Shown: positions 5,093-47,265, counted from the stretch's first letter. The stretch: 64,000 bases of DNA from Candidatus Dormiibacterota bacterium (GCA_036521195.1 DATDID010000009.1:1609-65608), one strand, 5' to 3'. Translations and numbers: made by a program. Notes: a model not told the origin generated them from the letters alone.

Positions 5093-6105
5093 TACTGAGC
5101 TCCAACCTCCACGGGGGTTCTCACCGCGCTCGCGATCACACCGCTGACGCCCTGGTCGGCCGCGCGAGCGGCAACACGGATCGCGTTCATCGTCGCCTCG
5201 GCGTCCGACCGCCCGTGCGCGATGACCACTTCACCTGCAACGCCGAGCAACAGCGCGCCGCCCGTCTTTCGGTAGTCGACACGATCGCGGAGCGGGCGGA
5301 GCTTCGGCTTGAGCAACGCTCCGCCGACTTTGCCGCCCATGGACTTGCGGGCTTCCCGGGCGATGCTCGAGAAGAGGAAATCGCCGATGCCCTCGGCAAC
5401 CTTGAGGACGACGTTACCGGTGAACCCGTCGGTCACCACGACATCGCATGCACCTCGGAAGACGTCCTTGCCCTCGACGTTGCCGACGAAGTTGATCGGC
5501 AGTGCCGCGATGAGCGGGTGCGCGGCCTGGACGAGCTCGGATCCCTTCTCGGCCTCCTCGCCATTGCTGAGCAGGGCGACTCGCGGGCGCTCGATGCCGA
5601 GCATGGTGCGAGCGTAGACGTCGCCCATCAGCGCGAACTGCGCCAACCACTCGGCCTTGCAGTCCGTGTTGGCACCGACGTCGAGCATGAACGTCTGACC
5701 CGACTCGCTCGGGAACGCTGCGCCAATGGCGGGTCGCGCGATGCCCGGGATGCGCTTGATGGTGAACAGTGCGGCTGCCAGCATCGCACCGCTGTTGCCC
5801 GCGCTCACCACTGCGCGAGCACTGCCGGCGGCCACCAGGGCGCAGCTGCTCACCAGTGAGGAGTCGCGCTTGGCGCGCACCGCGTTGGCGGGATGCTCGT
5901 TCATCTCGATGACGTCGCGTGCGTCGACGACGGTGATCGCACCCGACGATGCGCCCGCGCTCCGCAGCTCGGCTTCGACGGTTTCGCGCCGCCCCACCAG
6001 CGTGACCGAGATGCCGTGCTCGTTCACGGCGCGCAACGCACCTTGAACGATCGCTGCCGGGGCGTTGTCACCGCCCATCGCGTCAACCGCGATTGGGAGC
6101 GGCAT
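5092..6105 (-). CDS. plsX: phosphate acyltransferase PlsX
   Basis: The internal ATG at 6105 gives [16 protein letters not shown]... and a 337-aa protein, the normal PlsX length. The start overlaps the gyrB stop (TGATG) and the stop overlaps the gyrA start (TAATG). Confidence 0.9.
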
Positions 6106-31821: not shown

Positions 31822-31967
31822 GTTGGTCCTCCGTGGTCGTGATCATGGCGCGCGCTGCTGATCGGCGTCGAGGGTGCGTGGACCACGGCTGACGGTGAGG
31901 GCCGCCCCCCGCAGACCGTGGTGGCAGCCCCATTTCCTTCCGCGCCGCGCTCACTAGAGTGGGCGCC

Positions 31968-33284
31968 ATGCCTTCGGAGCCGATGATCCGCGTCGTCCTC
32001 GCCGACGACAATCTCATCGTCCGCGAAGGCGTGAGGGCACTGCTGTCCATAGCCGGGGATCTCGAGGTCGTCGCCGTTGCGGGTGATTACGACGAACTCC
32101 TTGCGGGAGCCGCGGAGCATGTGCCGCAGGTGGTGGTGACCGACATCCGGATGCCACCGGACTTCACCGACGAAGGGATTCGGGCCGCACGGATCGTGCG
32201 CATGCGCAATCCCGGGACCGGGGTGGTGATCCTGTCGCAGTACGACGAGCCCGAGTACGCGATCTCCCTGCTCAGTGAAGGCGCCGCCGGTTACGCGTAT
32301 CTCCTCAAGGATCGCGTCGGCGACGGCGATCAGCTTGCACGCGCCGTGCGGGAGGTCAGCACCGGTGGTTCGATGCTCGACCCGCGCATCGTCGACGCAC
32401 TGACGAGACCCGTCAGTGAGGGAGGCGGCCTGACCGACGTCGAGGAACGCCTGCTGCGGATGGTCGCCGAGGGCAAGCCCGTCAAGGCGATCGCGGCGTC
32501 ACTGCACACGACACCGACGTCGGTTGGCGACGACGTCGAGCAACTGTTCCTGAAGCTCGCGCAGCAGGCGAGTGCCGGCACCCAGGGTGCGCTCGATCGG
32601 TTGCGGTTGCTGCACAAGGTGATCATCGATCGCGAGGAGCAGGGCGAGAGTCTCAGTCGCATGCTGCCCGGCGGGATTGCGCAGCAGATGCGCGAGCACG
32701 GCATCGAGGCAGGCAGAACCGAACGGCTCACCGTGACGGTGCTCATGTCCGATATCCGAGCGTATTCCACCATCGCCGAGCAATCGGATCCATCGATCCT
32801 CGCCGGCCAGCTGAACGAACATCGTGCCGCCATGAACCACGCGCTGCTCCGTGAGGGCGGCACCGTCATGCAGTTCGTCGGTGATGCGGTCATGGCTGTC
32901 TTCGGTGCCCCACTCCTGCAGCCGGACCACGCGCAGCGTTCGCTTGCCGCAGCGCTCGCGATGCATGCTGCGCAAGCACACGTCAACGAGGAGTGGGCTG
33001 TGCGCGGGCTGCCGCCGTTCCACATCGGCATCGGCCTGTCCACCGGAGACGTTGCCGCTGCGCTCCTCGGGTCGGAGGAGCGTCTCGAGTACTCGGTGGT
33101 CGGCGACGCGGTGAACCTCGCGCAACGCCTGCAACAGTGGGGCGACGGCGGACAAACGGTGCTGAGTGAACCGACGTACGAGGCGTTGATCCAGAAGCCT
33201 GATGCGGAGCGCATCGAGCCGGCGCTCGTCAAGGGTCGTCACACCCCGGTTGGCGCGTATCGCATCGGCGCGGTGGTGGCATGA
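31968..33284 (+). CDS. response regulator fused to a LuxR-type HTH and a class III adenylate/guanylate cyclase domain
   Basis: REC: IRVVLADDN...VVTDIRMPP. HTH: LTDVEERLLRMVAEGKPVKAIAASLHTTPTSVGDDVEQLFLKL. Cyclase: VLMSDIRAYS, FVGDAVMAVFGAP, YSVVGDAVNLAQRLQ. A GTG at 31959 is also possible. Confidence 0.85.
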   Translation: MPSEPMIRVVLADDNLIVREGVRALLSIAGDLEVVAVAGDYDELLAGAAEHVPQVVVTDIRMPPDFTDEGIRAARIVRMRNPGTGVVILSQYDEPEYAISLLSEGAAGYAYLLKDRVGDGDQLARAVREVSTGGSMLDPRIVDALTRPVSEGGGLTDVEERLLRMVAEGKPVKAIAASLHTTPTSVGDDVEQLFLKLAQQASAGTQGALDRLRLLHKVIIDREEQGESLSRMLPGGIAQQMREHGIEAGRTERLTVTVLMSDIRAYSTIAEQSDPSILAGQLNEHRAAMNHALLREGGTVMQFVGDAVMAVFGAPLLQPDHAQRSLAAALAMHAAQAHVNEEWAVRGLPPFHIGIGLSTGDVAAALLGSEERLEYSVVGDAVNLAQRLQQWGDGGQTVLSEPTYEALIQKPDAERIEPALVKGRHTPVGAYRIGAVVA

Positions 33285-35398
33285 CGTCGCAGCCTGCAGC
33301 ACGGCGCGACGTCTGGCTGGCCTGGGTGATCGGTGCGCTGTGTCTGCCGATGCTCATTGGCAGCGTCGTCCTGCTTGTCCTGGACTGGAACGTCATCGAC
33401 GCGCCGGCCACGTCCCAACTGCCGTATCTGGTTGCGGCACCCATCACCGGCATCCTCGGTGTGTTGATCGCGACACGCCGTCCGCGCAACCCAACGGGGT
33501 GGCTGCTGCTTGGAATCGGCGCGAGCAACGTCGTGTCGACCACGGGCGGATTGGCCGCTGTGCGAGGGCTTGCGAGCGGCGCTGTTCCTTCGGGCTGGGT
33601 TGCGTGGTCTGCGTTTGTCTTCACCAACGTCGGTTCGGTTGGCGCGCTGCTCGTTGCGGCACTGATCCTCGTGTTTCCCGACGGTCACCTCCTGCCGGGT
33701 CCGCGCTGGCGGTGGGCGACGGTGGTGGTTTCGCTCGCCGTCGCGGTGGGACTCGCGGCGTCGATCGTTGCGCCTGCGCCGCTGCAACTCAGTCCGAACC
33801 TGCCAAGTGTCCCCAACCCCGTCGGGATCGGTGCGCTCAACAGTCTGACGAGCAACGGGAGCCCCATCGAGCTGGGGATCCTGTTCATGCTTCTCCTCGT
33901 TCTTGCTGCGGCGGCGGTGCGGCTCCGGCGGTCACGTGGCATCGAGCGGAGTCAGATGCGCTGGTTCGCCTACGTCGCAGCGGCGTCGGTGGCGGTCATC
34001 GTCGTCGGGTTCTTCGTGGTGAACGCCAACGCAGATCTCGGGAACAACATCAGTGACCTCGGGTTCGGCTTCGGCTTCTATCTGCTCGTTCCAGCGACCA
34101 TCGGTGTCGCGGTGATGAGGTACGGCCTGTACGACATCGATGTCTTCATCAGTCGAACGCTCGTGTACGGTTCGCTTGCGGTGTTCATCACAGCCGTGTA
34201 CGTGGGCATCGCAGTTGGAATCGGAACGCTGGTGGGCAGTGGCGGCAAGCCGAATCTCGCGCTGTCGATCCTCGCGACGGCGATCGTGGCGATCGGGTTC
34301 CAGCCCGTGCGCGAACGCGTCCAGAGGATAGCCAACCGGCTCGTGTATGGGAAGCGGGCGACGCCGTATGAGGTGTTGAGTGAATTCTCAGGCCGCGTTG
34401 CGGAGACGTATGCCGCCGATGAGGTGCTGCCGCGCATGGCTCGAGTGCTGCGGGAAGGGACCGGTGCGGAATCCGCGACCGTATGGCTGCGCGGCGCCCT
34501 GGAACTTCGGCCCGCAGCGACCTATCCCGACCAGACGATCGCCCGCGATTCGTTGCCCATGAGCAACGGATCACTCCCCACAATGCCGGATTCGTCGCGC
34601 GTGGTCGAGGTGCGCCATCAGGGCGAGCTGCTCGGCGCGTTGAGCGTGACGAAGCGCCGTGGTGAAACGCTGACGCCGATCGAGGACAAGCTCGTTGACG
34701 ACCTGGCGCACCAGGCGGGCCTCGTGCTCAAGAACGTCGGATTGAGCGCAGATCTGCAGGCGCGGCTTGACGAGCTGCGCGCGTCACGGCAGCGACTCGT
34801 CCACGCGCAGGACCTCGAGCGCCGCCGCCTCGAACGGAACCTCCATGACGGTGCGCAGCAGCACCTCGTGGCGCTCAAGGTGAAGCTTGGACTTGCGGAG
34901 ATGTTTCTCACTCGTGACCCGGAGAAGGCAACGGCGGCACTCGTGCAACTCAAGCACGACGCCGACGAAGCCCTCGAGACGCTGCGCGACCTGGCCCGCG
35001 GCATCTACCCACCGCTGCTCGCTGACAAAGGTCTTGTCGTCGCGCTGGAGTCGCAGGCACGGAAAGCGACCGTACCGGTGAGCTTCGACGCCGACGGTGT
35101 ATCCCGCTATTCGCAGGACGTCGAGGCGACTGTGTACTTCTGCGTGCTCGAGGCCCTGCAGAACGTGCAGAAATATGCGCACGCTACGCGTGCGGTGGTG
35201 CGCATCCACGCCGACGCCGACCTCGTCACCTTCGACGTCACCGATGACGGCGAAGGCTTCGATGTGGCGGTGGCCAGGAAAGGTGCCGGCCTCACCAACA
35301 TGAACGACCGTCTCGATGCGCTCGGGGGGCGCGTCCGGGTGACCTCCGAGATCGGTCGCGGCACCACGGTTCGCGCGGAGGTACCGGTGACGCTGTGA
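33281..35398 (+). CDS. sensor histidine kinase (polytopic sensor, HisKA_3 type), paralog 1
   Basis: A multi-TM N-terminus, RNLHDGAQQHLVALKVKL (HisKA_3 H-box), and HATPase motifs LEALQNVQKYA and DDGEGF...GAGLTNM. ATGA overlap with the upstream regulator. Confidence 0.9.
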   Translation: MTSQPAARRDVWLAWVIGALCLPMLIGSVVLLVLDWNVIDAPATSQLPYLVAAPITGILGVLIATRRPRNPTGWLLLGIGASNVVSTTGGLAAVRGLASGAVPSGWVAWSAFVFTNVGSVGALLVAALILVFPDGHLLPGPRWRWATVVVSLAVAVGLAASIVAPAPLQLSPNLPSVPNPVGIGALNSLTSNGSPIELGILFMLLLVLAAAAVRLRRSRGIERSQMRWFAYVAAASVAVIVVGFFVVNANADLGNNISDLGFGFGFYLLVPATIGVAVMRYGLYDIDVFISRTLVYGSLAVFITAVYVGIAVGIGTLVGSGGKPNLALSILATAIVAIGFQPVRERVQRIANRLVYGKRATPYEVLSEFSGRVAETYAADEVLPRMARVLREGTGAESATVWLRGALELRPAATYPDQTIARDSLPMSNGSLPTMPDSSRVVEVRHQGELLGALSVTKRRGETLTPIEDKLVDDLAHQAGLVLKNVGLSADLQARLDELRASRQRLVHAQDLERRRLERNLHDGAQQHLVALKVKLGLAEMFLTRDPEKATAALVQLKHDADEALETLRDLARGIYPPLLADKGLVVALESQARKATVPVSFDADGVSRYSQDVEATVYFCVLEALQNVQKYAHATRAVVRIHADADLVTFDVTDDGEGFDVAVARKGAGLTNMNDRLDALGGRVRVTSEIGRGTTVRAEVPVTL
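34148..35398 (+). repeat. paralogous roughly 1.25-kb segment, copy 1 (kinase C-terminal two-thirds)
   Basis: From ISRTLVYG to the stop, the protein aligns without gaps by eye to 36325..37593. Long identical peptide runs occur, for example GSGGKPNLALSI and RLVYGKRATPYEVLSEFSGRVAETYAADEVLPRMARVL. Confidence 0.8.
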
Positions 35399-37593
35399 TC
35401 GCGGCACCAGCAGCCGACGCTCTTCGGCATCGCTCGCGCTTGACTGCTCCTGCCGTTGCCTGGGCGCTCGCGGTGATAGCGCTCGCCTTTTTCATCACCG
35501 ACGCGGCGGTGTACTTCTCGCCGCTCACGCCGCCGGCACTGTTCAAAGCCGGCGGTGGTGCGATCAGCGCCTTCTGGCTCTTTCCGTACGCATCGATCAT
35601 CCCGGTGGGATTGCTCATCGCGCTGCGCAGGCCTGCGAATGGCATCGGATGGCTGATGCTCGTCGCCGTGATGCTCCTCGGAGCCGGAGCAGCCGCTGCG
35701 CTGGTGGGATCCATTCTCGCGCAATCACACAACAGGATCGGCGACCCCATCCTTCTCTTCTCGGCGCTGTGGAACGCGACCGGAGGTGGCGTTCTCGCGC
35801 TGCTGCTTGTGATGCTGCTGATCTTTCCGGATGGCCATCTGCCGTCGAAGCGATGGCGATGGCTTTTGTACTCAATCCTTTCCTTCGCCGTCATCGGGCT
35901 GGTCCTCGTCATCGTCAGTCCGATTCCAGGCACGCTCGGTGAGACAACGACTCCCCAGCCTGGAGTCGTGCTCCCGGTCAGCATGCTTGCGATCAAGGGG
36001 ATCGCTGGGATTGTCACCGCGTTCTCGAATGTTGTCGGCGTCGTCTTCACGTTGGAGGCTGCTGCTGTCCTTGTCTCGATCTTCCTGCGGATGCGCGGCG
36101 CCGACGCCGATCGCCGGCAGCAGGTCAAGTGGGTCGCCTTTGCCGGAGTGATCACGCTGACGATCGTCTTCGTGCTCAACGGGATTCCTGTCGGCAACTC
36201 CGGCGAGCCCCCGCCTCTGTACTTCGTCATCGCCGGACCGCTGCTCATCCTCGCCGGCGTCGCCATACCCGGAGCGATCGGGATTGCCGTGTTGAAGTAC
36301 CAGCTGTACGACATCGACGTTCTCATCAGCCGCACGCTCGTGTACGGCGTGCTGGCCGCTTTCATCACCGCGGTCTACGTGGGCATTGCGGTTGGGGTGG
36401 GCACGCTAGTGGGGAGCGGTGGCAAGCCGAATCTCGCGTTGTCCATCGTCGCCACCGCCATCGTGGCGGTCGGATTCCAGCCGGTTCGTGAGCGCGTGCA
36501 GAGAGTCGCGAATCGGCTCGTCTACGGGAAGCGAGCAACGCCGTACGAAGTCCTCAGCGAGTTCTCCGGACGCGTGGCGGAGACATACGCCGCCGACGAG
36601 GTGCTCCCGCGAATGGCACGGGTCCTGCAGGAGGGAACGGGTGCGGAATCGGCGACCGTGTGGCTGCGTGGAAGCGCCGAACTGCGGCCTGCGGCAACGT
36701 ATCCGGACGGGACTGAAATCCACGAGCCGCTGCCGATGAGCAACGGATCACCGCCCCTGCTGCCGGATACGACCCGGGCTGTGGAAGTTCGCCACCAGGG
36801 GGAATTGCTCGGTGCGTTGAGCGTCAGCAAGCGCAGAGGCGAAGCGTTGACACCGATCGAGGACAAGCTCATCGATGACCTCGCGCTCCAGGCGGGACTG
36901 GTACTCAAGAATGTCGGGCTCAGCGCAGATCTGCAGCTGCGCCTCGATGAGCTGCGTGCGTCGCGACAGCGACTCGTGCACGCCCAGGATCTGGAACGCC
37001 GGCGTTTGGAACGCAATCTCCATGACGGTGCGCAGCAGCATCTCGTTGCGCTGAAGGTGAAGCTGGGGCTGGTAGAGATGCTCCTCGGCCGCGACCCAGC
37101 GAAGGCGGCGGCAACGCTGGGACAGCTCAAGGGTGACGCAGACGAGGCGCTCGAAACCTTGCGTGATCTGGCACGTGGGATCTACCCGCCGCTGCTTGCG
37201 GACAAAGGACTCGTCGTCGCGCTGGAATCGCAGGCTCGCAAGGCGACGGTGCCAGTCAGCGTTGAAGCCGGAGCGGTGACACGCTACTCGCAGGATGTCG
37301 AGGCGACTGTGTATTTCTGCGTCCTCGAGGCGCTGCAGAACGTGCAGAAATACGCGGGCGCGACGCAGGTCGTTGTCCGTCTTTCGGCCGGCAATGGGAC
37401 GCTGGCCTTCAGCGTCCTCGATGACGGTGCAGGCTTCGACCCAGCAGTCGCGAAAAAGGGCGCGGGCCTCACCAACATGGCCGACCGTATCGACGCACTC
37501 AACGGCAGCGTCCTGGTCACATCACATCTCGGCGCCGGCACAACGGTGCATGGCGAGCTGCCTGCCGTGTCTCGCGACCCGGTCGAGGTCTGA
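35395..37593 (+). CDS. sensor histidine kinase (polytopic sensor, HisKA_3 type), paralog 2
   Basis: Same cytoplasmic architecture as paralog 1 with a different N-terminal TM sensor region. GTGA overlap with paralog 1. Confidence 0.9.
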   Translation: MIAAPAADALRHRSRLTAPAVAWALAVIALAFFITDAAVYFSPLTPPALFKAGGGAISAFWLFPYASIIPVGLLIALRRPANGIGWLMLVAVMLLGAGAAAALVGSILAQSHNRIGDPILLFSALWNATGGGVLALLLVMLLIFPDGHLPSKRWRWLLYSILSFAVIGLVLVIVSPIPGTLGETTTPQPGVVLPVSMLAIKGIAGIVTAFSNVVGVVFTLEAAAVLVSIFLRMRGADADRRQQVKWVAFAGVITLTIVFVLNGIPVGNSGEPPPLYFVIAGPLLILAGVAIPGAIGIAVLKYQLYDIDVLISRTLVYGVLAAFITAVYVGIAVGVGTLVGSGGKPNLALSIVATAIVAVGFQPVRERVQRVANRLVYGKRATPYEVLSEFSGRVAETYAADEVLPRMARVLQEGTGAESATVWLRGSAELRPAATYPDGTEIHEPLPMSNGSPPLLPDTTRAVEVRHQGELLGALSVSKRRGEALTPIEDKLIDDLALQAGLVLKNVGLSADLQLRLDELRASRQRLVHAQDLERRRLERNLHDGAQQHLVALKVKLGLVEMLLGRDPAKAAATLGQLKGDADEALETLRDLARGIYPPLLADKGLVVALESQARKATVPVSVEAGAVTRYSQDVEATVYFCVLEALQNVQKYAGATQVVVRLSAGNGTLAFSVLDDGAGFDPAVAKKGAGLTNMADRIDALNGSVLVTSHLGAGTTVHGELPAVSRDPVEV
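36325..37593 (+). repeat. paralogous roughly 1.25-kb segment, copy 2
   Basis: Counterpart of 34148..35398. The DNA differs at many synonymous positions while the protein is largely conserved. Confidence 0.8.
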
Positions 37594-37599
37594 AGCGTC

Positions 37600-37980
37600 C
37601 TACGCGGACGACGCGGCGTCCCAGGCCTCGATGAGACGGTCCGGACTGAACTCCGACTTGGAGATGAACCCCGCCGCGCCTGCTTCAGCGGCGCGCGGTC
37701 CGTACTCATCGGCCTCATAGGTCGACAACACAAGCACCACCACGGGCTTGCCCGAATCCACCTCGGAGAGGATCTCCCTGGTCGCATCGAGACCACTGAT
37801 CCCCGGCAGATTCACGTCCATGAGCACCAGATCGGGACGGAGCTCACGCGCCGACTTCACCGAGTCCTCGCCGGTCTCGACCTCACCCACGACCTCGAAT
37901 CCGTCGGTGAGCTCGACGACCGTGCGGGCCACGTCGCGAAACGGCGCTTGATCGTCGACGATCAACACCCGTACGCTCAT
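37600..37980 (-). CDS. single-domain (CheY-like) response regulator
   Basis: 126 aa: VLIVDDQAPFR, DLVLMDVNLPGISG and GFISKSEF. No output domain. Confidence 0.88.
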   Translation of the reverse strand: MSVRVLIVDDQAPFRDVARTVVELTDGFEVVGEVETGEDSVKSARELRPDLVLMDVNLPGISGLDATREILSEVDSGKPVVVLVLSTYEADEYGPRAAEAGAAGFISKSEFSPDRLIEAWDAASSA

Positions 37981-38082
37981 GTCAGGTCTCGCATGCTGCC
38001 ACGGTATCCCGACAGCGTCGCCGGGGCAACCCTGCAGCCATCACTCGTCGGGTGATGCAGGCACCCTGGCAACCGGCTCGCC

Positions 38083-38088
38083 TATCCT
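38083..38088 (+). promoter_or_regulatory. candidate -10 element (TATCCT, TANNNT type) positioned for a leaderless transcript
   Basis: TATCCT is followed by 6 nt and then the GTG start at 38095. There is no SD in between. Confidence 0.3.
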
Positions 38089-38094
38089 CACGTC

Positions 38095-38760
38095 GTGCCG
38101 ATTCGTGTGGTCCTCGCGGAGGACAACTACCTGCTCCGTGAAGGCATTCGCCAGCTGCTCGAGACTTCCGGCGAGATCGACTTGCTCGCGTCGTGCGCCG
38201 ACCTTCCCGAGCTCGAGCACGCGATCGAGGAGCACAGCCCGGCGGTGGTCATCACCGACATCCGCATGCCACCGACCGGCACCGATGAAGGATTGCGCGC
38301 CGCGGAGCGACTCCGAACTGAGCGACCCGAGGTCGGCGTGGTCGTGCTCAGCCAGTACGCCGAACCCGAATACGCGCTCGCGTTGCTGGAGAAGGGTGCG
38401 AGCGGTCGCGCCTATCTCCTCAAGGAGCGTGTCTCCGACATCGACCAGCTCGTCGGTGCGGTGCGTGAGGTTGCGCGTGGTGGTTCGGTGATCGACCCGC
38501 GCGTTGTCGAAGTGCTGGTCGCCGCGCGGAGTGCCGCGCGCAATTCGCCGATCGCGCAGTTGACACGACGCGAGCTCGACGTCCTGCAACAGGTCGCGAT
38601 GGGACGGAACAACGCCGGCATCGCTGCCGCCCTGTTTCTCACGGAGCGCGCGGTCGAGAAGCACATCAACGCGATCTTCTCCAAGCTCGATCTGTCCGAG
38701 GAGCCCGACGTGCACCGGCGAGTGAAAGCGGCGCTCGTCTACCTCGCCGCGCAGCCGTAG
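38095..38760 (+). CDS. NarL/LuxR-family response regulator
   Basis: IRVVLAEDNYLLREG, VVITDIRMPP, and HTH LTRRELDVLQQVAMGRNNAGIAAALFLTERAVEKHINAIFSKL. Confidence 0.9.
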   Translation: MPIRVVLAEDNYLLREGIRQLLETSGEIDLLASCADLPELEHAIEEHSPAVVITDIRMPPTGTDEGLRAAERLRTERPEVGVVVLSQYAEPEYALALLEKGASGRAYLLKERVSDIDQLVGAVREVARGGSVIDPRVVEVLVAARSAARNSPIAQLTRRELDVLQQVAMGRNNAGIAAALFLTERAVEKHINAIFSKLDLSEEPDVHRRVKAALVYLAAQP

Positions 38761-38761
38761 G

Positions 38762-40021
38762 TCAGTCCCGCTCCTGCGCATCGTGCGCACCGACGAGCAC
38801 CGCCATGTTGCCCATAGGGTGCTTGTTCTCGCGCATCAGTTGATGCGCATGACCGACCTCATCGAACGCGAACGTCTGTGACAGGCACGGGTCGACCTCG
38901 CCGCTGATGACCATGTCGTTGAAGGCCGCAGCTTCCTGATCGTTGGCGAAGTGCGAGCCCTGGAGCCGCTTCTGGCGCATCCAGAGATAACGAAGGTCCA
39001 CCGCCGCGTGATAGCCGGTGGTGCCGGCACAGATGACGACCATCCCGCCGTTCTCACACACGAAGATCGATGTCGGGATGGTGTCCTCGCCGGGATGCTC
39101 GAAGACGATGCGCGGGTTGCGTCGCTCGCCGATGACATCCCAGAGCGCCTTGCCGAACGCCCGGGCGCCTGCGCTCCACGCCGCAAATGCCGCGTCGTCG
39201 CGCCAGTTCGGGATCACGCCCCAGTGGGAAAAGTCGCGCCGGTCGATGTACCCCCGCGCGCCGAGGTCCATGCAGTATTTGCCGCGTTCCGGTCCGGAGG
39301 TGACGGCGACAGGGATTGCGCCCTTGGCTTTCGCGATCTGGATCGCCTGCGAACCGAGCCCACCCGATCCGCCCCAGATGAGCACGACATCGTCCTTTTG
39401 CACCGTGTGTGGATGCCACGAGCACAGCATCCGGTACGCAGTGGCGCCGACCAGCGTGCCGGCAGCCGCAGCCGCCCAACTCAGCCGTGCGGGCTTGGGC
39501 AGCAACTGATGGGCCTGCACGAGCGTGTACTGCGCGAAGCTTCCCCAGTTGGTCTCGTATCCCCAGATCCGGGCGCTCGGCGCGACGATCGGGTCGCCGC
39601 CGGCCGTGATCCACGGGTCTTCGGGATCCCACATCCCGCAGTGCGCGACGACGTGATCACCGACACGGACGTTCTCGACACCGTCGCCGACCGCCCACAC
39701 GATCCCGGACGCGTCGCTGCCCCCGATGTGGAACGCCTCGTGCTCACCCGCCTTCTCGCGAGCGGCGATGACGTCGACCGGTCGGCCAAGGGCGGCCCAC
39801 ACGTTGTTGTAGTTGACGCCCGCAGCCATCACGTAGACCAGCGCCTCTCCCGGACCCGGCGTCGGCGTGGCGATCGTCTCGATCTTGAAGGCTGTCTGCG
39901 GATCACCGTAGCGCTCAGGGCGGATCAGCGACGCGTGCATCAACCCCGGGACGTCGCCGAGCGACGGCATCGTCCCGACATCGGTCGCATCGGCGTGCGG
40001 CATTGCGCTCGGACAATACAC
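38762..40021 (-). CDS. ccr: crotonyl-CoA carboxylase/reductase
   Basis: Contains [44 protein letters not shown] and [16 protein letters not shown], characteristic of Ccr-type MDR enzymes. An ATG at 40003 is an alternative start. Confidence 0.85.
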
Positions 40022-40102
40022 GGGGCAGCGTTTTCAGCGACCCCACGGTTCGCTACACTCACCGACGCTCTTGGGACGACCACGTAAGGGGAGGACCCGG
40101 CG

Positions 40103-41227
40103 GTGACGTGTGCCCACTGCGGTAAGCAGGTGCCCGATGCGGCCTTCTGCACCAACTGCGGTGCCCACCAGGGCCTTGCCAACGACGGGGTCGCCGCACA
40201 GGAACGAACGCAGCACTTCGCTGCGCACCCGGGTGAGCACGTCTCCCAACCGTCGGTCTTCAGCACGCTGCTCCCGCACCTGGGACATCGAAGGATCCAC
40301 GAGTTCCGCTGGGCCTTCATCATCGGGCTCGCCGCGATCGTCGTCCTCGTCGCGACAGGGCTCATCGTCGCGGCCTTGCTGGCGTCGATCTTCCTCGTGC
40401 CGACCCTTTACATCCTCTATCTGTACGAGGCGCAGGTCTATCGCGACGAGCCCGCGCTGGTGCTGGGTGCGACGCTCGCCGGCGGGATCATCCTCGGACT
40501 GATCGTCACCATCATTGCGGACCGGATCATCGGTGTGAGCCTGGGTTCCGACTCTGGTTCGATCTTTGCGTACACGGTGATCCTGCCGATTATTCAGCTG
40601 GTCGTCATGCCGCTGCCGGCGCTGTTCCTGCTGACGCGTCCGCAGTTCGGCGAGACCATCGACGGGCTCGTCTTCGGCATCACCGCCGGTCTCGGTTTCG
40701 GGCTGGCCGAGGGGATCGTCAATTATTCGAATGTCATCGCCAATCTCGGCGTGCACACCGACTCCGCATCGTGGATCTACCCGATGGTGTCGCTCGCGGT
40801 GCTCGTGCCGCTCGTGCATGGGAGCGCCTCGGGCGCGATCACCGCATCGGTGTGGCGTCCATTTCGCGCGGGCACCGCACGGTGGGTGTCGCTGTTCGCG
40901 ATACCGATCGCGCTCGTCGCGGTGCTGGCGTTCTACGCGGGCGGCCAGATACTCGTCACGCACGACGCCGCGCCGCTCATCGTGCTCGCCTATCAGGCTG
41001 CAATCGTCCTCATCCTGATCGTATACATCCGCCATCTGGTGCACCACGCGCTGCTCGAGGAGGGTCGCGACCTCGGCTATCGCGCCATCGTGTGCGCGCA
41101 CTGCCACCACCACGTGATGGCCGCGGGTTTCTGCCCGAGTTGCGGGAGTGCGCTCAGCGCCTCGCCACGGCGCGAGACGGGCGCAGAACCGTCGCCTGTC
41201 GCGGCTTCGACGACGGAGGCCACATAG
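40103..41227 (+). CDS. PrsW-like polytopic membrane protein flanked by N- and C-terminal zinc ribbons (copy A)
   Basis: N-terminus CAHCGKQVPDAAFCTNCG and C-terminus CAHCHHHVMAAGFCPSCG. The membrane core has YLYEAQVYRDEP and DGLVFGITAGLGFGLAEGIVNY, resembling PrsW family blocks. Confidence 0.6.
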   Translation: MTCAHCGKQVPDAAFCTNCGAHQGLANDGVAAQERTQHFAAHPGEHVSQPSVFSTLLPHLGHRRIHEFRWAFIIGLAAIVVLVATGLIVAALLASIFLVPTLYILYLYEAQVYRDEPALVLGATLAGGIILGLIVTIIADRIIGVSLGSDSGSIFAYTVILPIIQLVVMPLPALFLLTRPQFGETIDGLVFGITAGLGFGLAEGIVNYSNVIANLGVHTDSASWIYPMVSLAVLVPLVHGSASGAITASVWRPFRAGTARWVSLFAIPIALVAVLAFYAGGQILVTHDAAPLIVLAYQAAIVLILIVYIRHLVHHALLEEGRDLGYRAIVCAHCHHHVMAAGFCPSCGSALSASPRRETGAEPSPVAASTTEAT

Positions 41228-42238
41228 ATGGCACTCGCCTGCCCGCAGTGCGGGACCAGCAACCCGGACGGCAACGCGTTTTGCGTGAGTTGCGGCTCCG
41301 CGCTCACCGCGACCTCCATCGGGGACGAGGTCACCCGGACCATACAGACAGCTCCGTTCGCGCCGGCACCGGTTGCTGCAGGCGCGCCGCCGTTTGCCGT
41401 AGCGCCTGGAACAGCACTGCCGCCTCTGAGCTTCCTGCCGGAGGGAGACACGCCGCCGGCCGGATACGCCCCGCCGTCGGGACCGTATCTGCCGGCACCT
41501 CCGTCAGGAGCCGCGCCGGCGCATCGGACATCGAGCACGATGCTCATCGCGATCGTCGTGATCGTCCTGCTCCTCGTCGGAGGTGGCGGCGTTGCCTACG
41601 CCGCGCTGAACAAGGGCGGAACGACGCCGGCGCCGACGGCCAACATCCCGGTCACCGTTCCCACCACTGCGCCGACCGCGGCTCCAACGGCTGCCCCAAC
41701 GCAGCCGCCCTCGTCGATTCCACAGTCCGCTTCGACCGGGCACATTGTCGCCACACCATTCGCCAAGGTGTTCGTCCCCACTGGTTTCACCGTCATCGAC
41801 CAGGAGTCGGACTCCATTGTCATGGGCCCGAACAGTGGCAGTGAAAATGCGGTCGGTGCACAGGCCCAGCCACTCAACGGCGCGACCACCAACGCGCAGC
41901 TCGACCAGGACCTGCTTGCGGGCGACCAGCAGAGTGACGATCCGAGCGCGAAGATGTGCAGCACCAAGGCGCCATCGCAGACTCAACTCGTTGGGTCGGG
42001 CGGGACCATCACCGCTGACGTCATCTCGATCTGCGAGAACCTCACGCCCCCCAACGGACCGGCATTCGCGGCGATCGACGGTTACTTCGCCGGCGTCGCC
42101 CAGGCCGCGGATGGCAGCTTCAAAGCCGTGTGGTTCGAATTCCTCGCGCCTGCGAGCAGCTTCGCGGCGTTCACCAACAGCATTCCGTCGGCGATGATCA
42201 CGCAGACGGTGTTCGCGGACGCCTCGCCACCCTCCTAG
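41228..42238 (+). CDS. zinc-ribbon / Pro-rich linker / single-TM / extracytoplasmic-domain protein (partner A)
   Basis: CPQCGTSNPDGNAFCVSCG, a Pro/Ala-rich linker, the TM helix MLIAIVVIVLLLVGGGGVAY, a Thr/Pro linker, and a roughly 170-aa outside domain. The ATG directly abuts the previous stop. Confidence 0.6.
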   Translation: MALACPQCGTSNPDGNAFCVSCGSALTATSIGDEVTRTIQTAPFAPAPVAAGAPPFAVAPGTALPPLSFLPEGDTPPAGYAPPSGPYLPAPPSGAAPAHRTSSTMLIAIVVIVLLLVGGGGVAYAALNKGGTTPAPTANIPVTVPTTAPTAAPTAAPTQPPSSIPQSASTGHIVATPFAKVFVPTGFTVIDQESDSIVMGPNSGSENAVGAQAQPLNGATTNAQLDQDLLAGDQQSDDPSAKMCSTKAPSQTQLVGSGGTITADVISICENLTPPNGPAFAAIDGYFAGVAQAADGSFKAVWFEFLAPASSFAAFTNSIPSAMITQTVFADASPPS

Positions 42239-42243
42239 TCCGG

Positions 42244-43038
42244 TCACCTTCCCTGGAAGTGCAGGTTGGTGAGGACGTAGTCGAACGACTGGTCCGTCGC
42301 AAGGTAGAACGGCGCGTCGCCACCGGTGTTGCTCTCACACCACATCTCGGCCACGAGTGTTGTGTTGCCGTGCGTCGCGGCGATGATCACGATGCCGACC
42401 GGGTTGCCGGAACTGCCTGAGGTCGAAACGAGGTTCGCGGTGTATCCGGTGCCGACTCCGGGGATGAGTCCGACCTCCGCGCCGGGCACCGGCTCGACCG
42501 CGGTGATGTCCTGGAACTGATTGCCCGAGAAGTCACCGAGCGCGTTCTGCACCGCCTGCGATGTGTTGGTCCCGGACATCGCGGTGACGAGGATCTCGCC
42601 GATGGTGTCGCCCTGCTTGTCCTCCGCGAGGAAGTCGGCGGCGTTCGACGACGGATCGGGTTGGTTGATCGTGAGGTTCGAGCCGCTGTAGTCGATGACG
42701 AATCCCCATTTCGTGTCGACGAATTCGCGCGAGTCAGGAAGCCGCGTGCCGACGTCCGGCCCGCAGTAGAACCCGCAACCCTGCGCGCTCGTCGATACCT
42801 TGACGGCGAGGACGGTGACAAGGGTTGCGACGATGGCGACCACAGCCAGTGCCGCGATGATCACCGTTGCGTGGGACAGCTTGGATGGGTGAGTCGCGCT
42901 CGCATACGGCGGAAGCGGTAGTGGTCGCGCAGCCGCACCCGGCGCTGTCGCCGCGCCGCACTTTCCGCAGAAGGCGCTGCCGGCGCTGAGCGGTGCGCCG
43001 CAATGCCCGCAGAAATGACCGCCGAACGTCGTGGTCAT
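42244..43038 (-). CDS. zinc-ribbon / single-TM / extracytoplasmic-domain protein (partner B)
   Basis: The ATG at 43038 gives MTTTFGGHFCGHCGAPLSAGSAFCGKCG. TM helix VIIAALAVVAIVATLVTVLAV, then a roughly 190-aa outside domain. ATGA overlap with the upstream gene. Confidence 0.6.
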   Translation of the reverse strand: MTTTFGGHFCGHCGAPLSAGSAFCGKCGAATAPGAAARPLPLPPYASATHPSKLSHATVIIAALAVVAIVATLVTVLAVKVSTSAQGCGFYCGPDVGTRLPDSREFVDTKWGFVIDYSGSNLTINQPDPSSNAADFLAEDKQGDTIGEILVTAMSGTNTSQAVQNALGDFSGNQFQDITAVEPVPGAEVGLIPGVGTGYTANLVSTSGSSGNPVGIVIIAATHGNTTLVAEMWCESNTGGDAPFYLATDQSFDYVLTNLHFQGR

Positions 43039-44180
43039 GATGCGATCTCCTCGACGGCGGCGTGGCGTGCATGCTTCGGTGCGGCGAGGCGCGCGGCACC
43101 GCAATTCGGACAGAACGCCATGGTGTGCACGAGTCGATGGCACTCACCGCAGGGCGCGAGCGGGCCGATGCTGTGCTTGCCCGCCTCCTCGAGCAGCGCT
43201 GCATGCAGGACAACACGAACCACCACGAGCAACACGGCGCCGAGCGCCGTCCAGATGAGCAGCGACGACAGTGGGTCGGGCGTGTAGTACCCGGCAACAC
43301 CGAGCACGACCTGCGCGGCGAATCCGGCGATCACACCGATGGGCGTCACCCAGCCGGCGCGGCCAGCGTGTCCGGGGGCTCGCCTCCACAGCGCCGCGGC
43401 GATAACGCCGGTCGTCCCTGCATTCACCACCGACGCGACCACGCCGCTGCGCAGGATGCGCAGGACATCGTCGGCCGCGATGCCGTGAACGAGTGGTGCG
43501 GTGAAGAACGGCCAGGAGCTGGCGATGACAGCAACAAGCGTGAAACCGAGGGCGGACGCAACGGCGAAGGTGAGCCCGTCGAGCGTCTCGTCGAATTTCG
43601 TGCGTGTCAGCAGGACGAGCGGCCCGGCGAGCATCAGCGCCTGCGCAATCAACGGCAGGAGCACGCCCGTCACGAGTGGTCCCTGAACGGTGCCACTGAG
43701 CTGCGTCGTCGTCAGGTGGTTCGCGATGACGAAGTAGAGGAATCCGAGCACGCCGCCCGTGACGACGGTGAGGAGCAGGACCTGGATCGGCTCGTCCTCG
43801 TACACCTCGGACTCGTAGAGGTAGAGCAGGTACAGCACTGGGAGGAGCAGCACCGAGACGAGCGTCGCCGGTGCGACGAATCGGAGCGCTGCGAGCAGCA
43901 GCACCACACCGACGCCGCCGATGAGCACCTCGCGGAAGACGTGCACCTGGCGATGCGGCAGGTGCGGGAACAGCGTTGTGATCACCGACGAGCGGGTGAC
44001 GTGCTCATCCGGCGCGGCCGCGTACGACGATGCGCGTCCGCGCCCGGCGTTGCCTTCGAGGTGTTCGCCGCAGTTGCCGCAGAAGACACCCGCGGGAACA
44101 TGCGCGCCGCAGTGTCTGCAGGTCACCGTCTCCGTCGTGCCGCTCGCGTCGCCGCGGGTACGCGCAGGCGTGTCGGTCAT
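43035..44180 (-). CDS. PrsW-like polytopic membrane protein flanked by zinc ribbons (copy B)
   Basis: CRHCGAHVPAGVFCGNCG and CGECHRLVHTMAFCPNCG. SVITTLFPHLPHRQVHVFRE is paralogous to SVFSTLLPHLGHRRIHEFRW of copy A. The ATG at 44180 overlaps the S53 stop (ATGA). Confidence 0.6.
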   Translation of the reverse strand: MTDTPARTRGDASGTTETVTCRHCGAHVPAGVFCGNCGEHLEGNAGRGRASSYAAAPDEHVTRSSVITTLFPHLPHRQVHVFREVLIGGVGVVLLLAALRFVAPATLVSVLLLPVLYLLYLYESEVYEDEPIQVLLLTVVTGGVLGFLYFVIANHLTTTQLSGTVQGPLVTGVLLPLIAQALMLAGPLVLLTRTKFDETLDGLTFAVASALGFTLVAVIASSWPFFTAPLVHGIAADDVLRILRSGVVASVVNAGTTGVIAAALWRRAPGHAGRAGWVTPIGVIAGFAAQVVLGVAGYYTPDPLSSLLIWTALGAVLLVVVRVVLHAALLEEAGKHSIGPLAPCGECHRLVHTMAFCPNCGAARLAAPKHARHAAVEEIAS

Positions 44181-45940
44181 CCGCTCGCCCCGTGAGTCTT
44201 CTCGTACCACTCGAAGTCATTGGTGAGCGCGCCGACATCGGGTGTGCCGAGACCCGTCGCCATGTCCCACCCCGGGCCGGCGGCGAAGTGCAGGTTCGAG
44301 CCGAGCGTGATGTCGTGGAACGCGGGCGCGGGCAGCCCGGGAGGCGATTGTGCGAAGAGGTAGAGAGCGGGATTGGCAAAGCCGACCGGCGGCAGTGACT
44401 TCTGCGAGAGATTCTCGTCGATGAGCGCTGCGACCGCCGCCCAGAAGGGTGCCGCTGCCGACGTTCCGCCGACCGGGCCCTCCTCCGTCTGACCAGCAGT
44501 CTGTCCAGGGCCGATGATGTCCCAGCCCGAGAGGATGTCAGCGTTGGCCGCGACATCGGGAACGCCGCGACCGGTCATCGAGGCGGTAATGCCGGGTGCC
44601 ACCTGCCACGTCGGTCGCGACAGTTGCGTGCTCATGCCACCACCGCTGCCCCACTGCTCGACGGGCTCACCCCACGCGGACTCCTGGAAGTAGCCGCCGT
44701 CCTCAGCGAGGAATGCGGTGGTGCCGCCCACGGCCGTCACGCCGACACTCGACGCGTCGGGCATCACGGATATCTCGGTGTTGCCGTTTGCGTCCTGGTT
44801 GGGAAAGTTGTTGAGGCACATGTATGCGCCGCGGTCTCCGGATGCCCAGAAGATGCTCATCCCCTGTGCCGCGGCGGCCACGTCAACCTGGTTCTCGGCG
44901 GCTCCGTCCGCGGCAGCGCCTCGCTCGTGCTCGCATTCGTGCTCGCTGATGCTGCTCGAGAGGATGACGTGTGGGGAAGCCGCGGCGATCGCCTTGATGA
45001 CGTCGGGGATGGCGGCGCCGTTGCTGAATTCGTAGACGACCTCATGTGCGCCGGGAGCGATGCCGTGCACGATCTCGAGGTCGAGGGCGGCCTCGCCGGC
45101 CACGTCCGAATACTGTTTGTCGCCGCTGACAAGTGGTGCGCCCCAGTCAGCCGCGTCCTGGTGGATCTCCACGTTGAACGGCACCGTGGGAGTGAACTTC
45201 TTCGCAAATGCGTTGAGCACGCTGGTCGGCGGCACTCCCCACTCGAGGAAGACCACGGTCTGCCCTGTGCCGTCGAGTCCCGCTTTGCGCAGCGGTGTGA
45301 TGTCGTAGAAGTTCGTCATGTCCGCCGGCGTGACACCGTCGACGTCCGCGGCGGGGACGGCCGACGTCAGGTCGCGCACGTAGTTGTCGAGCCCGGTGAC
45401 GGCGATGACCATTCCGGCGAGCTGCGCAGGAATCGCCGGTGCAGTCAGCGATGAGTAGAACGCGGTGCCGTCCGGGGTCACGAAGCGATGGATGCTGATC
45501 CGGAGGAATCGCTCGACAGCATCAGCCGAGCCGCTGACCGTCAGCAGCACTGCGCCGGACGTCCAGTGCGCGGTGAGGCCGGCGGCGGTGAGGGCTCTGA
45601 GCGCGGCAGCGACACGCGCCGGATCGGGTCCGAACCGGCTAGCGAACTCGGCCGAGGTCATGGCGGAGCCACTCGCGAGCGCATCCTGCAGTGCGTTGGG
45701 GTCGCGGTCGGCGAGCGTCAGGTCGAAGGACATGGGCTGCGCCGAAAGAATGGGTCCGAGGTCGCGGCTGTCGCGGATCGCCACCTCGAGCGGGGCCAGG
45801 CCGCTGGACGGCGAGGTCTGCGTCGTCGATTGCGATGACGGCGGTGGCTGGCGCGCTTGGGTTCGCGACAAGGTCGTCTGCGAGGTGCAGGCGGCGAGAC
45901 CGAGCAAGCACACGAGGCTCGCCACGAGCAATCGACCCAC
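44177..45940 (-). CDS. S53 (sedolisin/kumamolisin-like) serine peptidase lipoprotein with pro-domain
   Basis: GTG start and lipobox LLGLAAC. An N-terminal pro-kumamolisin-like activation region. Catalytic serine context GGTSAAAPFWAAVAALI. Confidence 0.8.
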   Translation of the reverse strand: MGRLLVASLVCLLGLAACTSQTTLSRTQARQPPPSSQSTTQTSPSSGLAPLEVAIRDSRDLGPILSAQPMSFDLTLADRDPNALQDALASGSAMTSAEFASRFGPDPARVAAALRALTAAGLTAHWTSGAVLLTVSGSADAVERFLRISIHRFVTPDGTAFYSSLTAPAIPAQLAGMVIAVTGLDNYVRDLTSAVPAADVDGVTPADMTNFYDITPLRKAGLDGTGQTVVFLEWGVPPTSVLNAFAKKFTPTVPFNVEIHQDAADWGAPLVSGDKQYSDVAGEAALDLEIVHGIAPGAHEVVYEFSNGAAIPDVIKAIAAASPHVILSSSISEHECEHERGAAADGAAENQVDVAAAAQGMSIFWASGDRGAYMCLNNFPNQDANGNTEISVMPDASSVGVTAVGGTTAFLAEDGGYFQESAWGEPVEQWGSGGGMSTQLSRPTWQVAPGITASMTGRGVPDVAANADILSGWDIIGPGQTAGQTEEGPVGGTSAAAPFWAAVAALIDENLSQKSLPPVGFANPALYLFAQSPPGLPAPAFHDITLGSNLHFAAGPGWDMATGLGTPDVGALTNDFEWYEKTHGASG

Positions 45941-45952
45941 GGGAGGCGAATA

Positions 45953-47265
45953 TTACGGGCCCGGTCGATAGCGCCACACCGACGGAAACGCTGCCGCCGC
46001 GGCGCCGAGACCGACGAGACAGAGCGCGCCGCCGGTGATGATCGCCACTTCCGCGCCGAACGCGTTTGCCACGATGCCTGTCTCGACGTCCCCGAGATAC
46101 GGGCCGCCGGCCACCACCATGAAGTAGAGCGAGGTGAGCCGGCCCCGGAGTTCGTTGGGAGCGATCCGCTGCATGATCGTGGTGCGACAGACGGCGCTGA
46201 AGCTGTCGGCGCCACCGGCAAGGGCGAGCAGCAGCAGCGCGACCCGGAGGCTGTGGGCGAACCCGAAAGCGACCACCGCGACGCCCCACACCGCGATCGA
46301 GATCACGATGATCCGGCCGAGGCGCTTGGAGCGAGCTGTCGGCCCGCTGATCAGCGCGGCGACGACTGCGCCGAATCCCGGTGCGGAGTAGAGGAAGCCC
46401 AACCCCTGGGCGCCGGCGTGGAATGTGTTCGCTGCCAGCACCGGGAAGACGGCACGCGGCAGGCCGAAGATCATCGCCGCGAGGTCCATGGCGAACGTGC
46501 CGAGCAGGATCGGCTGGCGGCGGGTGAACTGGATGCCCCGAAGGATCGCCGCAAGCGGCCGCTCTCGCTCCGTCGATGAGTGTCCCTGCGGCGGCAGCAG
46601 CATCACGGCGACCAGCGCGGCGCTGAACGTGACCACGTCGACCGAGTACGCCTCGGCGAGTCCCAGATGCGCGATGACGAGGCCGCCGATTGCAGGCCCC
46701 GCGACGAGTGTCGTCTGGAACAGCGCGATGTTCAGCGAGAGCGCCCCGGCAACTGATCGCTGCCGACGAGGTTCGGGATGATCGCCGTGCGCGTCGGGGA
46801 ATCGACAGCGCCCACCAGCGCCGCGAGCGCGACGATGCCGTATAGCGCCAGCAGTGGCGGGTTCCCGGTGTAAGCACCCAACGCGAGCAGCCCTGAGCAC
46901 GAGGCGAGACAGAGTTGGGTGACGAGCAGGACCCGCCGGCGGTCGAACCGGTCGGCGATCGCGCCACCGCCGAGCGATCCCACGATGAGCGGGACGGCCT
47001 GGACGATGCCCAGCAAGCCCACGTACAGCGCCGATTTCGTCAGTGCGTACACCTGGAACGGGACCGCGACCAGCGTGATCTGGCGGCCGATCAGGGAGAT
47101 GAGCTGGCCGATGAACAGCCGCCGGAACGGCCGCGATTCCCGGAGTGCTCGGGCGTCGACCGCCATGGTCCGGACGACCCGGCTGGCCATCGGCCTGCGC
47201 ACGAGCGGCGATGCCGGTTCGACGCTCGGGCCGTCGGGGGCCGGTGGAGTCAGTTCGTCGGGCAC
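45953..47265 (-). pseudogene. MFS transporter (EntS/MFS_3-like) split by a frameshift
   Basis: Two ORFs in different frames (46732..47265 and 45953..46900) together form one MFS protein: ...IIPNLVGSDQLP | GALSLNIALFQTTLVAGPAIGG.... The frames switch at the C4 run 46744-46747. Confidence 0.7.

Follow-up and report, generated by a model that had tools for sequence, protein, structure and literature searches.

PrsW of Bacillus subtilis (YpdC; MEROPS family M82) is the site-1 protease of the anti-sigma-W factor RsiW. Two relatives of this protein are encoded in a stretch of 64,000 nucleotides from Candidatus Dormiibacterota bacterium (GCA_036521195.1 DATDID010000009.1:1609-65608; hereafter the window), a high-GC DNA (GC content about 0.66) in which positions 40103 to 44180 hold two convergent gene cassettes, A and B. 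Each cassette carries a PrsW-family membrane protein with zinc ribbons at both termini (A1, B1) and, coupled to it, a partner with a ribbon and a single transmembrane (TM) helix (A2, B2); cassette B additionally includes an S53 peptidase (sedolisin) gene. The analysis favours a membrane scaffold not described before over a signalling protease.

Among inactive homologs of intramembrane proteases, iRhom is a rhomboid pseudoprotease controlling the membrane-tethered protease ADAM17. The logic proposed below for A1 and B1 would be the same (an inactive intramembrane-protease homolog with added cytoplasmic domains, coupled to an extracytoplasmic protease), but iRhom belongs to a eukaryotic system and has an unrelated fold, and the comparison is an analogy only. 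Closer in descent are two proteins of Staphylococcus aureus: SpdC, a scaffold for the single-pass hydrolase SagB (10.1101/2020.05.21.109470), and SpbR, an inhibitor that binds the signal peptidase SpsB (PMC12260438) and thereby regulates a membrane protease. Both are polytopic and, like A1 and B1, belong to the same protease superfamily with degenerate motifs, PrsW being distantly related to CPBP (PMC3482391). Unlike A1 and B1, they fall in the Abi/CPBP branch, lack zinc ribbons, and have partner genes that are neither translationally coupled nor fused to them; moreover, SpdC and SpbR bind a single-pass extracytoplasmic enzyme, whereas the complexes of A1 and B1 are putative, with translational coupling and natural fusions in their favour. 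Finally, fusions of PrsW with zinc ribbons were noted by Zhang, Aravind et al. (2012, PMC3482391) as presumed signalling peptidases, distinct from toxin-linked PrsW proteins. These have the same domain combination as A1 and B1, but the peptidases were assumed to be active, and nothing was said of a degenerate active site, of an obligate partner with ribbon and TM helix, of the fusions described below or of linkage to a sedolisin; in a full-text literature search, too, neither the degenerate site nor the obligate partner nor the link to the sedolisin was found described.

Gene organization and paralogy of the cassettes

An earlier note on this DNA had placed the four open reading frames (ORFs) of A1, A2, B1 and B2, and their strands and junctions agree with what is found here (Table 1). 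A1 starts with a GTG codon located 8 nt downstream of a GGGGAGG sequence, and its TAG stop is followed by the ATG of A2 without any spacer. The two cassettes meet head-on, as the note had reported, with 5 bp between their stop codons; no terminator-like site was found when the A2/B2 stop junction was scanned, and the hairpins there are not unusually stable (z -1.0 and -1.2). This spacing is not fixed, the ends of the homologous matches lying about 12-20 bp apart in relatives. Cassette B had been taken for a two-gene unit and turned out to contain three genes, S53-B1-B2, with overlapping junctions at both boundaries. Since ATGA overlaps join S53 to B1 and B1 to B2, the three genes are regarded as an operon. 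In the nearest genomic relative (OY970307.1) A1 is 94% identical and the gene order is the same.

A1 and B1 are clear paralogs, with 36% identity in a full-length alignment (E 1e-52). A recent inverted duplication was rejected: the DNA shows little mirror similarity (71% over a 102-nt part of the most conserved loop, and a further 34 nt within the ribbon) and B1-type orthologs with 43-52% identity are present in distant Dormibacterota genomes, for which reasons the cassettes are considered ancient paralogs. In A2 and B2, sequence likeness is confined to the ribbon in pairwise as well as profile comparison; homology of the partners by profile was not obtained beyond it, and a common fold is suggested solely by structural models (see below).

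All six ribbons that had been proposed in the four genes were found, each of the form CxxC-x9/10-CxxC. Those of A2 and B2 pass the threshold of 25 bits of the zinc ribbon family PF13240 (28.7 and 29.3 bits, respectively); those of A1 and B1 remain below it, with their four Cys kept in at least 91% of family representatives. A search by sequence for a solved-structure relative of A1 gave a sole match, a spurious ribbon match to Cas12f1, which was discarded.

A PrsW fold with a degenerate active site

The relationship to PrsW, for which an alignment to PF13367 had been suggested as a check, was confirmed by narrow margins: against a gathering score of 23.5, A1 reaches 28.1 bits and B1 23.7 bits. 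With the NF033739 equivalog (cut-off 225 bits), B1 falls far short at 28.7 bits and A1 gives no match at E <= 1. A family profile built from 110 representatives at 50% identity together with A1 and B1 (112 sequences) aligned by hhalign to B. subtilis PrsW with 87% probability over 209 columns; the reference PrsW sequence scores 321 bits against NF033739. Features shared with PrsW comprise a homologous polytopic fold, the TM order, a Y..(D/E)EP loop and an F.E..DG..(F/Y)G...LGF motif. Unlike PrsW, A1 and B1 have an extra N-terminal TM helix, two predicted cytoplasmic ribbons and family-specific motifs.

The main difference resides in the active site. The EExxK motif of PrsW reads QLxxM in A1 and AQxxM in B1, so that the paired glutamates are lost at the very positions named in the earlier note, and the catalytic His is not conserved (Table 1). 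A first hhalign run with a shallow profile had set the two glutamates one residue off; the register was fixed by the broader profile and by the relatives P0193 and P0208, which still read EExxK in the same columns, while others read xExxK. Among the 112 family sequences, EExxK is kept in 2 and the His column is occupied by H in 13. Each paralog carries Gln at one of the two former Glu positions, the A type at 165 and the B type at 166, and Q165 is present in 121 of the 122 rows of the A-type alignment (120 A1 orthologs, A1 and B1). In the same alignment the column of A1 H239 is occupied by H in 85 and by Q in 33 of the rows; an ortholog 89% identical to A1 already has Q. Judged by these residues, a non-catalytic state, which the earlier note had suspected for both copies, has good support in the case of B1 and is likely in that of A1.

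What is conserved instead in the 112 sequences lies elsewhere: the eight ribbon Cys, R35, an AA.P.E motif, P58, F68-R69, P100, Y106, P117, P162, D187-G188, P236, W251, R310, H314 and E320. From hydropathy and charge distribution, A1 and B1 would have 8 TM helices with both ends intracellular, and on that model the majority of the conserved positions other than proline and glycine would lie on the cytoplasmic face. Residues 35-69 of A1 (40205-40309) and the equivalent of B1 form a strongly conserved, predicted cytoplasmic stretch from the N-terminal ribbon to TM1, which in the A type reads R..(F/Y)AAHPGEHV.QPS..T.FPHLGH.K.HEFR and of which R35, AA.P.E, S54, L56, P58 and F68-R69 alone hold in the wider family. 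A metal site in AAHPGEHV..PHLGH was considered and dropped, since H46, H59 and H62 are not conserved across the wider family.

These data bear on the regulated-proteolysis module that the earlier note had found plausible, according to which A1 and B1 would be active site-1-type proteases that cleave their ribbon-TM partners on an extracytoplasmic cue, the released cytoplasmic ribbon or the ectodomain being the signal. Membership of the PrsW family by hidden Markov model (HMM) speaks for it, as do the proposal of zinc-ribbon-fused PrsW proteins as signalling peptidases (PMC3482391), the retention of E203 and H239 in A1, and some relatives (e.g., P0201, P0209, P0212 and P0220) that keep xExxK together with the motif-2 Glu and a His. 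However, A1 and B1 have neither glutamate of EExxK, in B1 the motif-2 Glu and the His are missing too, H239 is replaced already in the close ortholog mentioned above, and the motifs are missing from the fused forms described below as well. Because the catalytic residues are missing, cleavage of the partner by A1 or B1 is unlikely. Neither is an RsiW-like substrate or a sigma factor found, in contrast to PrsW: zf-HC2 (ZAS) has no Pfam match to A2 or B2 at E <= 1, and no sigma factor is present among the flanking genes examined (31959-46900). The anti-sigma-like module is thus not supported, and we consider regulated proteolysis unlikely. It follows that database names given to relatives of A1 and B1, such as 'PrsW family intramembrane protease' and 'RsiW-degrading proteinase', probably mislead, because the residues needed for PrsW activity are missing.

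The partner proteins A2 and B2

The cytoplasmic part of A2 and B2 is predicted to comprise only a ribbon of ~20 amino acids (aa) and a Pro-rich linker. Common to both partners are invariant pairs of extramembrane Cys and a conserved P-Y..H motif directly before the TM helix. The AlphaFold2 model of A2 has a predicted local distance difference test score (pLDDT) above 90 for residues 170-336, and Foldseek matched the modelled ectodomain to 3lyd, SciW, PsbP, Mog1, Apa and LpqN with probability 1.0 and target-normalised TM-scores of about 0.46-0.58; as modelled, the A2 ectodomain is a Mog1/PsbP-like fold. For B2 the model is weak (mean pLDDT 55), with a strand-helix-strand-helix order broadly like that of A2 and matches to PsbP, Mog1, DcrB, Tsi3 and LpqN. 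On these models A2 and B2 would be diverged paralogs with the same fold, tentatively so for B2, rather than carrying the different ectodomains described earlier. The predicted fold is shared with LpqN, Apa, Mtc28, DcrB, Tsi3 and PsbP, at about 8-14% identity in structural alignments; unlike these other Mog1/PsbP-like proteins, A2 and B2 possess an N-terminal ribbon and a TM anchor and are coupled to a PrsW-like protein. A link to type VII secretion was also considered and rejected: A2 scores 25.7 against 47.6 for TIGR03931 (Rv3446c), and the S53 protein 21.8 against 278.75 for TIGR03921 (mycosin).

Co-conservation, duplication and fusion in relatives

A scan of species-representative genomes found at least 184 stretches with a relative, of which the best 80 loci were analysed; nearly all are labelled Dormibacterota, with a minority under other phylum labels. 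Of the 86 PrsW-like genes in these loci with sufficient downstream sequence, 80 (about 93%) have behind them, at -7 to +14 nt, an ORF beginning with CxxC..CxxC and encoding a single TM helix, and in most pairs the partner ATG comes immediately after the PrsW-like stop. The pairs are co-conserved and sometimes duplicated, as the earlier note had proposed to survey. As a background, 35 of 710 other long ORF ends in the same loci pass the same test (at most 5%). The partner evolves faster than A1, because A2-like partners detected by tblastn show only 25-34% identity where that of A1 falls to 45-50%. In 10 loci cassettes A and B are neighbours, their order being convergent, tandem or shuffled.

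Tandem same-strand A1-A2-A1'-A2' arrangements are found in loci L018 (6001-10136) and L055 (6001-9981), where each PrsW-like copy is about 48-51% identical to the window A1. On the other hand, the S53-B1-B2 block (about 3.7 kb; window 42244-45940) is missing as a complete module from the fairly close relatives L007-L012, L015 and L016, in which A2 is followed directly by the gene of a major facilitator superfamily (MFS) transporter. Gene order around the cassettes is otherwise variable among the loci.

A search of 1.84 billion representative proteins (50%-identity library) gave 1524 clusters at E <= 1e-3, of which 254 match at E <= 1e-30, and dozens of conserved homologs exist for every cassette gene. 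Many of the matches are proteins of 590-720 aa that comprise a ribbon, the PrsW-like core, a ribbon, an extra TM helix and a domain of roughly 150-300 aa, again without the PrsW catalytic motifs. In P0243, residues 2-354 are B1-like (37% identity, E 2e-44) and residues 451-571 resemble the B2 ectodomain (28% identity, E 2e-11); an HMM of this ectodomain matches seven fused representatives. Since a single ribbon stands between the core and the extra TM helix, the split genes would have arisen by fission, or the fused ones by fusion, at the ribbon. The sedolisin is also found fused: P0251 (1041 aa) consists of a PrsW-like protein, a TM helix and the catalytic domain of an S53 peptidase with 35% identity to the window S53, occurs on 2 contigs from different samples and has three 1041-aa members in its 90% cluster. 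P0070 (457 aa, on a 46-kb ENA contig) was set aside as an A1-A2 fusion and not used as evidence; its in-frame junction (A1 1-311/A2 191-336) removes both ribbons, the linker, the TM helix and the start of the ectodomain, and it is probably a deletion (allele or pseudogene) or an assembly artefact.

High-GC DNA gives many spurious ORFs, and the variable surroundings could suggest that the genes are mere syntenic neighbours without functional relation, or that some of the ORFs are not real. Abutment or ATGA overlap at every junction, 93% adjacency against the background given above, independent gene fusions and the dozens of homologs per gene all oppose this explanation, which is effectively refuted by the fusions and the conserved translational coupling and retains next to no probability. 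We hold with high confidence that the genes of A and B form a functional unit.

The linked sedolisin

The S53 ORF contains a Pro-kumamolisin activation domain (PF09286, 53.7 bits) and a subtilase domain (PF00082, 33.2 bits); its match to pro-kumamolisin 1t1e has an E value of 8e-34. The catalytic positions align, with the Glu/Asp in GEAALDLE, the oxyanion Asp in ASGDRG and the Ser in GGTSAAAP, and the sedolisin is apparently active to judge from these residues. Its N-terminus, MGRLLVASLVCLLGLAAC, with the lipobox LAAC, looks like a lipoprotein signal. An S53 gene lies no more than about 7 kb from the B1-type gene in 10 of 10 B1-type loci. Additionally, of the six fused PrsW-like forms with readable contigs, five (P0243, P0239, P0237 with two copies, P0247 and P0258) have an S53 or S8 gene overlapping or a few bases away; for the sixth, P0271, no S53 gene is present on its 4.8-kb contig.

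Such an association could also be read in the style of polymorphic toxins, as PrsW-dependent export or auto-processing that releases the C-terminal or partner ectodomain, the sedolisin included, as an effector. The fusion of an N-terminal PrsW to a C-terminal extracellular module or peptidase does resemble the class described in PMC3482391. However, the residues needed for release are absent, the zinc-ribbon versions were set apart from the toxin-linked ones in that same study, the ectodomains are conserved orthologs and not polymorphic cassettes, no immunity-like genes were seen and PADLOC returned zero matches, and the S53 gene encodes its own lipoprotein signal peptide. This explanation is thus considered very improbable, well below regulated proteolysis.

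A proposed non-catalytic scaffold for membrane partners

Because tight coupling and fusions come together with a degenerate site, with conservation in the ribbons and the loops predicted to be cytoplasmic, with an ectodomain of a protein-binding kind and with a linked, apparently active lipoprotein protease, the observations are best fitted by a non-catalytic scaffold that holds the TM helix of the partner and, in cassette B, controls or anchors the sedolisin; we hold this with middling confidence. A1 or B1, with a PrsW fold of roughly 8 TM helices and the proteolytic residues lost, would bind the single TM helix of the coupled partner A2 or B2. At the cytoplasmic side, the two ribbons of A1 or B1, the conserved juxtamembrane motifs and the ribbon of the partner might assemble, whereas on the outer face the partner would present a Mog1/PsbP-like domain for protein binding. 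In the B type this platform would most likely tether, position or restrain the co-transcribed lipoprotein sedolisin at the membrane surface.

Several points weigh against the scaffold. The role assigned to the ribbons is conjectural, B2 is poorly modelled (mean pLDDT 55) and A-type modules have no linked protease. Moreover, A1 retains E203, the motif-2 Glu, as well as H239, a His shifted by one residue from the catalytic position, and deep A-type relatives keep xExxK, so that residual or altered catalysis may persist in the A lineage.

A bolder and rather doubtful extension would be that the PrsW-derived pseudoprotease, connected to the cytoplasm by a three-ribbon zinc module, holds and gates the surface lipoprotein sedolisin by means of the Mog1/PsbP-like adaptor, as a bacterial counterpart of iRhom-ADAM17. 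If so, the cytoplasmic state (e.g., zinc or redox on the ribbons) would control extracellular proteolysis, and the changes from Glu to Gln would keep the old active site as a helix-binding pocket.

Should the scaffold hold, the family, which is sizeable (the 254 clusters mentioned above) and whose best 80 loci come nearly all from an abundant but uncultured soil phylum, the Dormibacterota, would add a case from the PrsW branch to the emerging theme of inactive intramembrane-protease homologs that scaffold or regulate single-pass enzymes. Bacterial sedolisins would gain a candidate dedicated membrane partner, and the very common architecture of an N-terminal zinc ribbon followed by a TM helix a candidate binding partner.

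Table 1. Coordinates of the features of cassettes A and B in the window, and residues of A1 and B1 at the catalytic positions of PrsW.
Feature	Position	Strand	Remarks
A1	40103-41227	+	374 aa; PrsW-family membrane protein, ribbons at both termini, about 8 TM
A1 N-terminal ribbon	40109-40159	+	C3, C6, C16, C19; Cys kept in at least 92% of family representatives
A1 Q165-L166 codons	40595-40600	+	position of PrsW E75-E76
A1 C-terminal ribbon	41093-41143	+	C331, C334, C344, C347
A2	41228-42238	+	336-aa partner
A2 ribbon	41240-41293	+	
A2 linker		+	Pro-rich, conserved SPYL..HR motif; between ribbon and TM
A2 single TM	41540-41608	+	
A2 ectodomain	41735-42235	+	Mog1/PsbP-like (modelled); invariant C244, C269
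Gap between convergent stops	42239-42243		5 bp, TCCGG (stops 42236-42238 and 42244-42246)
B2	43038-42244	-	264-aa partner; ATGA overlap with B1; invariant CGFYC outside the membrane
B2 ectodomain	42247-42783	-	low-confidence model matches PsbP/Mog1 fold
B2 single TM	42802-42870	-	
B2 linker		-	PPY..SKLSH
B2 ribbon	42958-43011	-	
B1	44180-43035	-	381 aa; PrsW-family paralog of A1
B1 ribbons	44070-44120 and 43101-43151	-	
S53 peptidase (sedolisin) gene	45940-44177	-	587 aa; stop and B1 start share ATGA
PrsW E75			A1 Q165; B1 A (profile alignment)
PrsW E76			A1 L166; B1 Q (profile alignment)
PrsW K79			A1 M169; B1 M (profile alignment)
PrsW motif-2 Glu			A1 E203; B1 A
PrsW H175			A1 G240, with H239 one residue off; B1 Asn/Ala

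Neighbouring genes and further observations

Upstream of cassette A, positions 31959-38760 (+) hold a signalling cluster with a response-regulator/adenylate-cyclase fusion, two HisKA_3 histidine kinases (705 and 732 aa) and a NarL-type regulator. Between this cluster and A1, an oxidoreductase of the zinc-type alcohol-dehydrogenase family (ADH_N and ADH_zinc_N) is encoded at 38762-40021 (-), and its synteny with A1 is kept in close relatives. On the side of cassette B, the end of an MFS_3 (PF05977) transporter gene (45953-46900, -) lies 12 nt before the start of S53; given this distance and the common strand, it may belong to the B operon. Over half of the 80 loci have an MFS homolog in the vicinity of the PrsW-like gene, in convergent or divergent orientation. 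In the deep-branching locus L024, a 178-aa ORF (5409-5945), recognised by eye as similar to MsrA, the peptide-methionine sulfoxide reductase, lies between the MFS and A1-like genes.

An anti-phage defence system was also considered for the cassettes and rejected, PADLOC having given no matches. In locus L085 (1-6004), the S8 gene and fused PrsW-like gene of P0239 form a pair. Immediately upstream of this pair stand a SIR2_2 gene and a gene for a 1223-aa nSTAND/AAA_16-WD40 protein, a neighbourhood that is defence-like or signalling-like.

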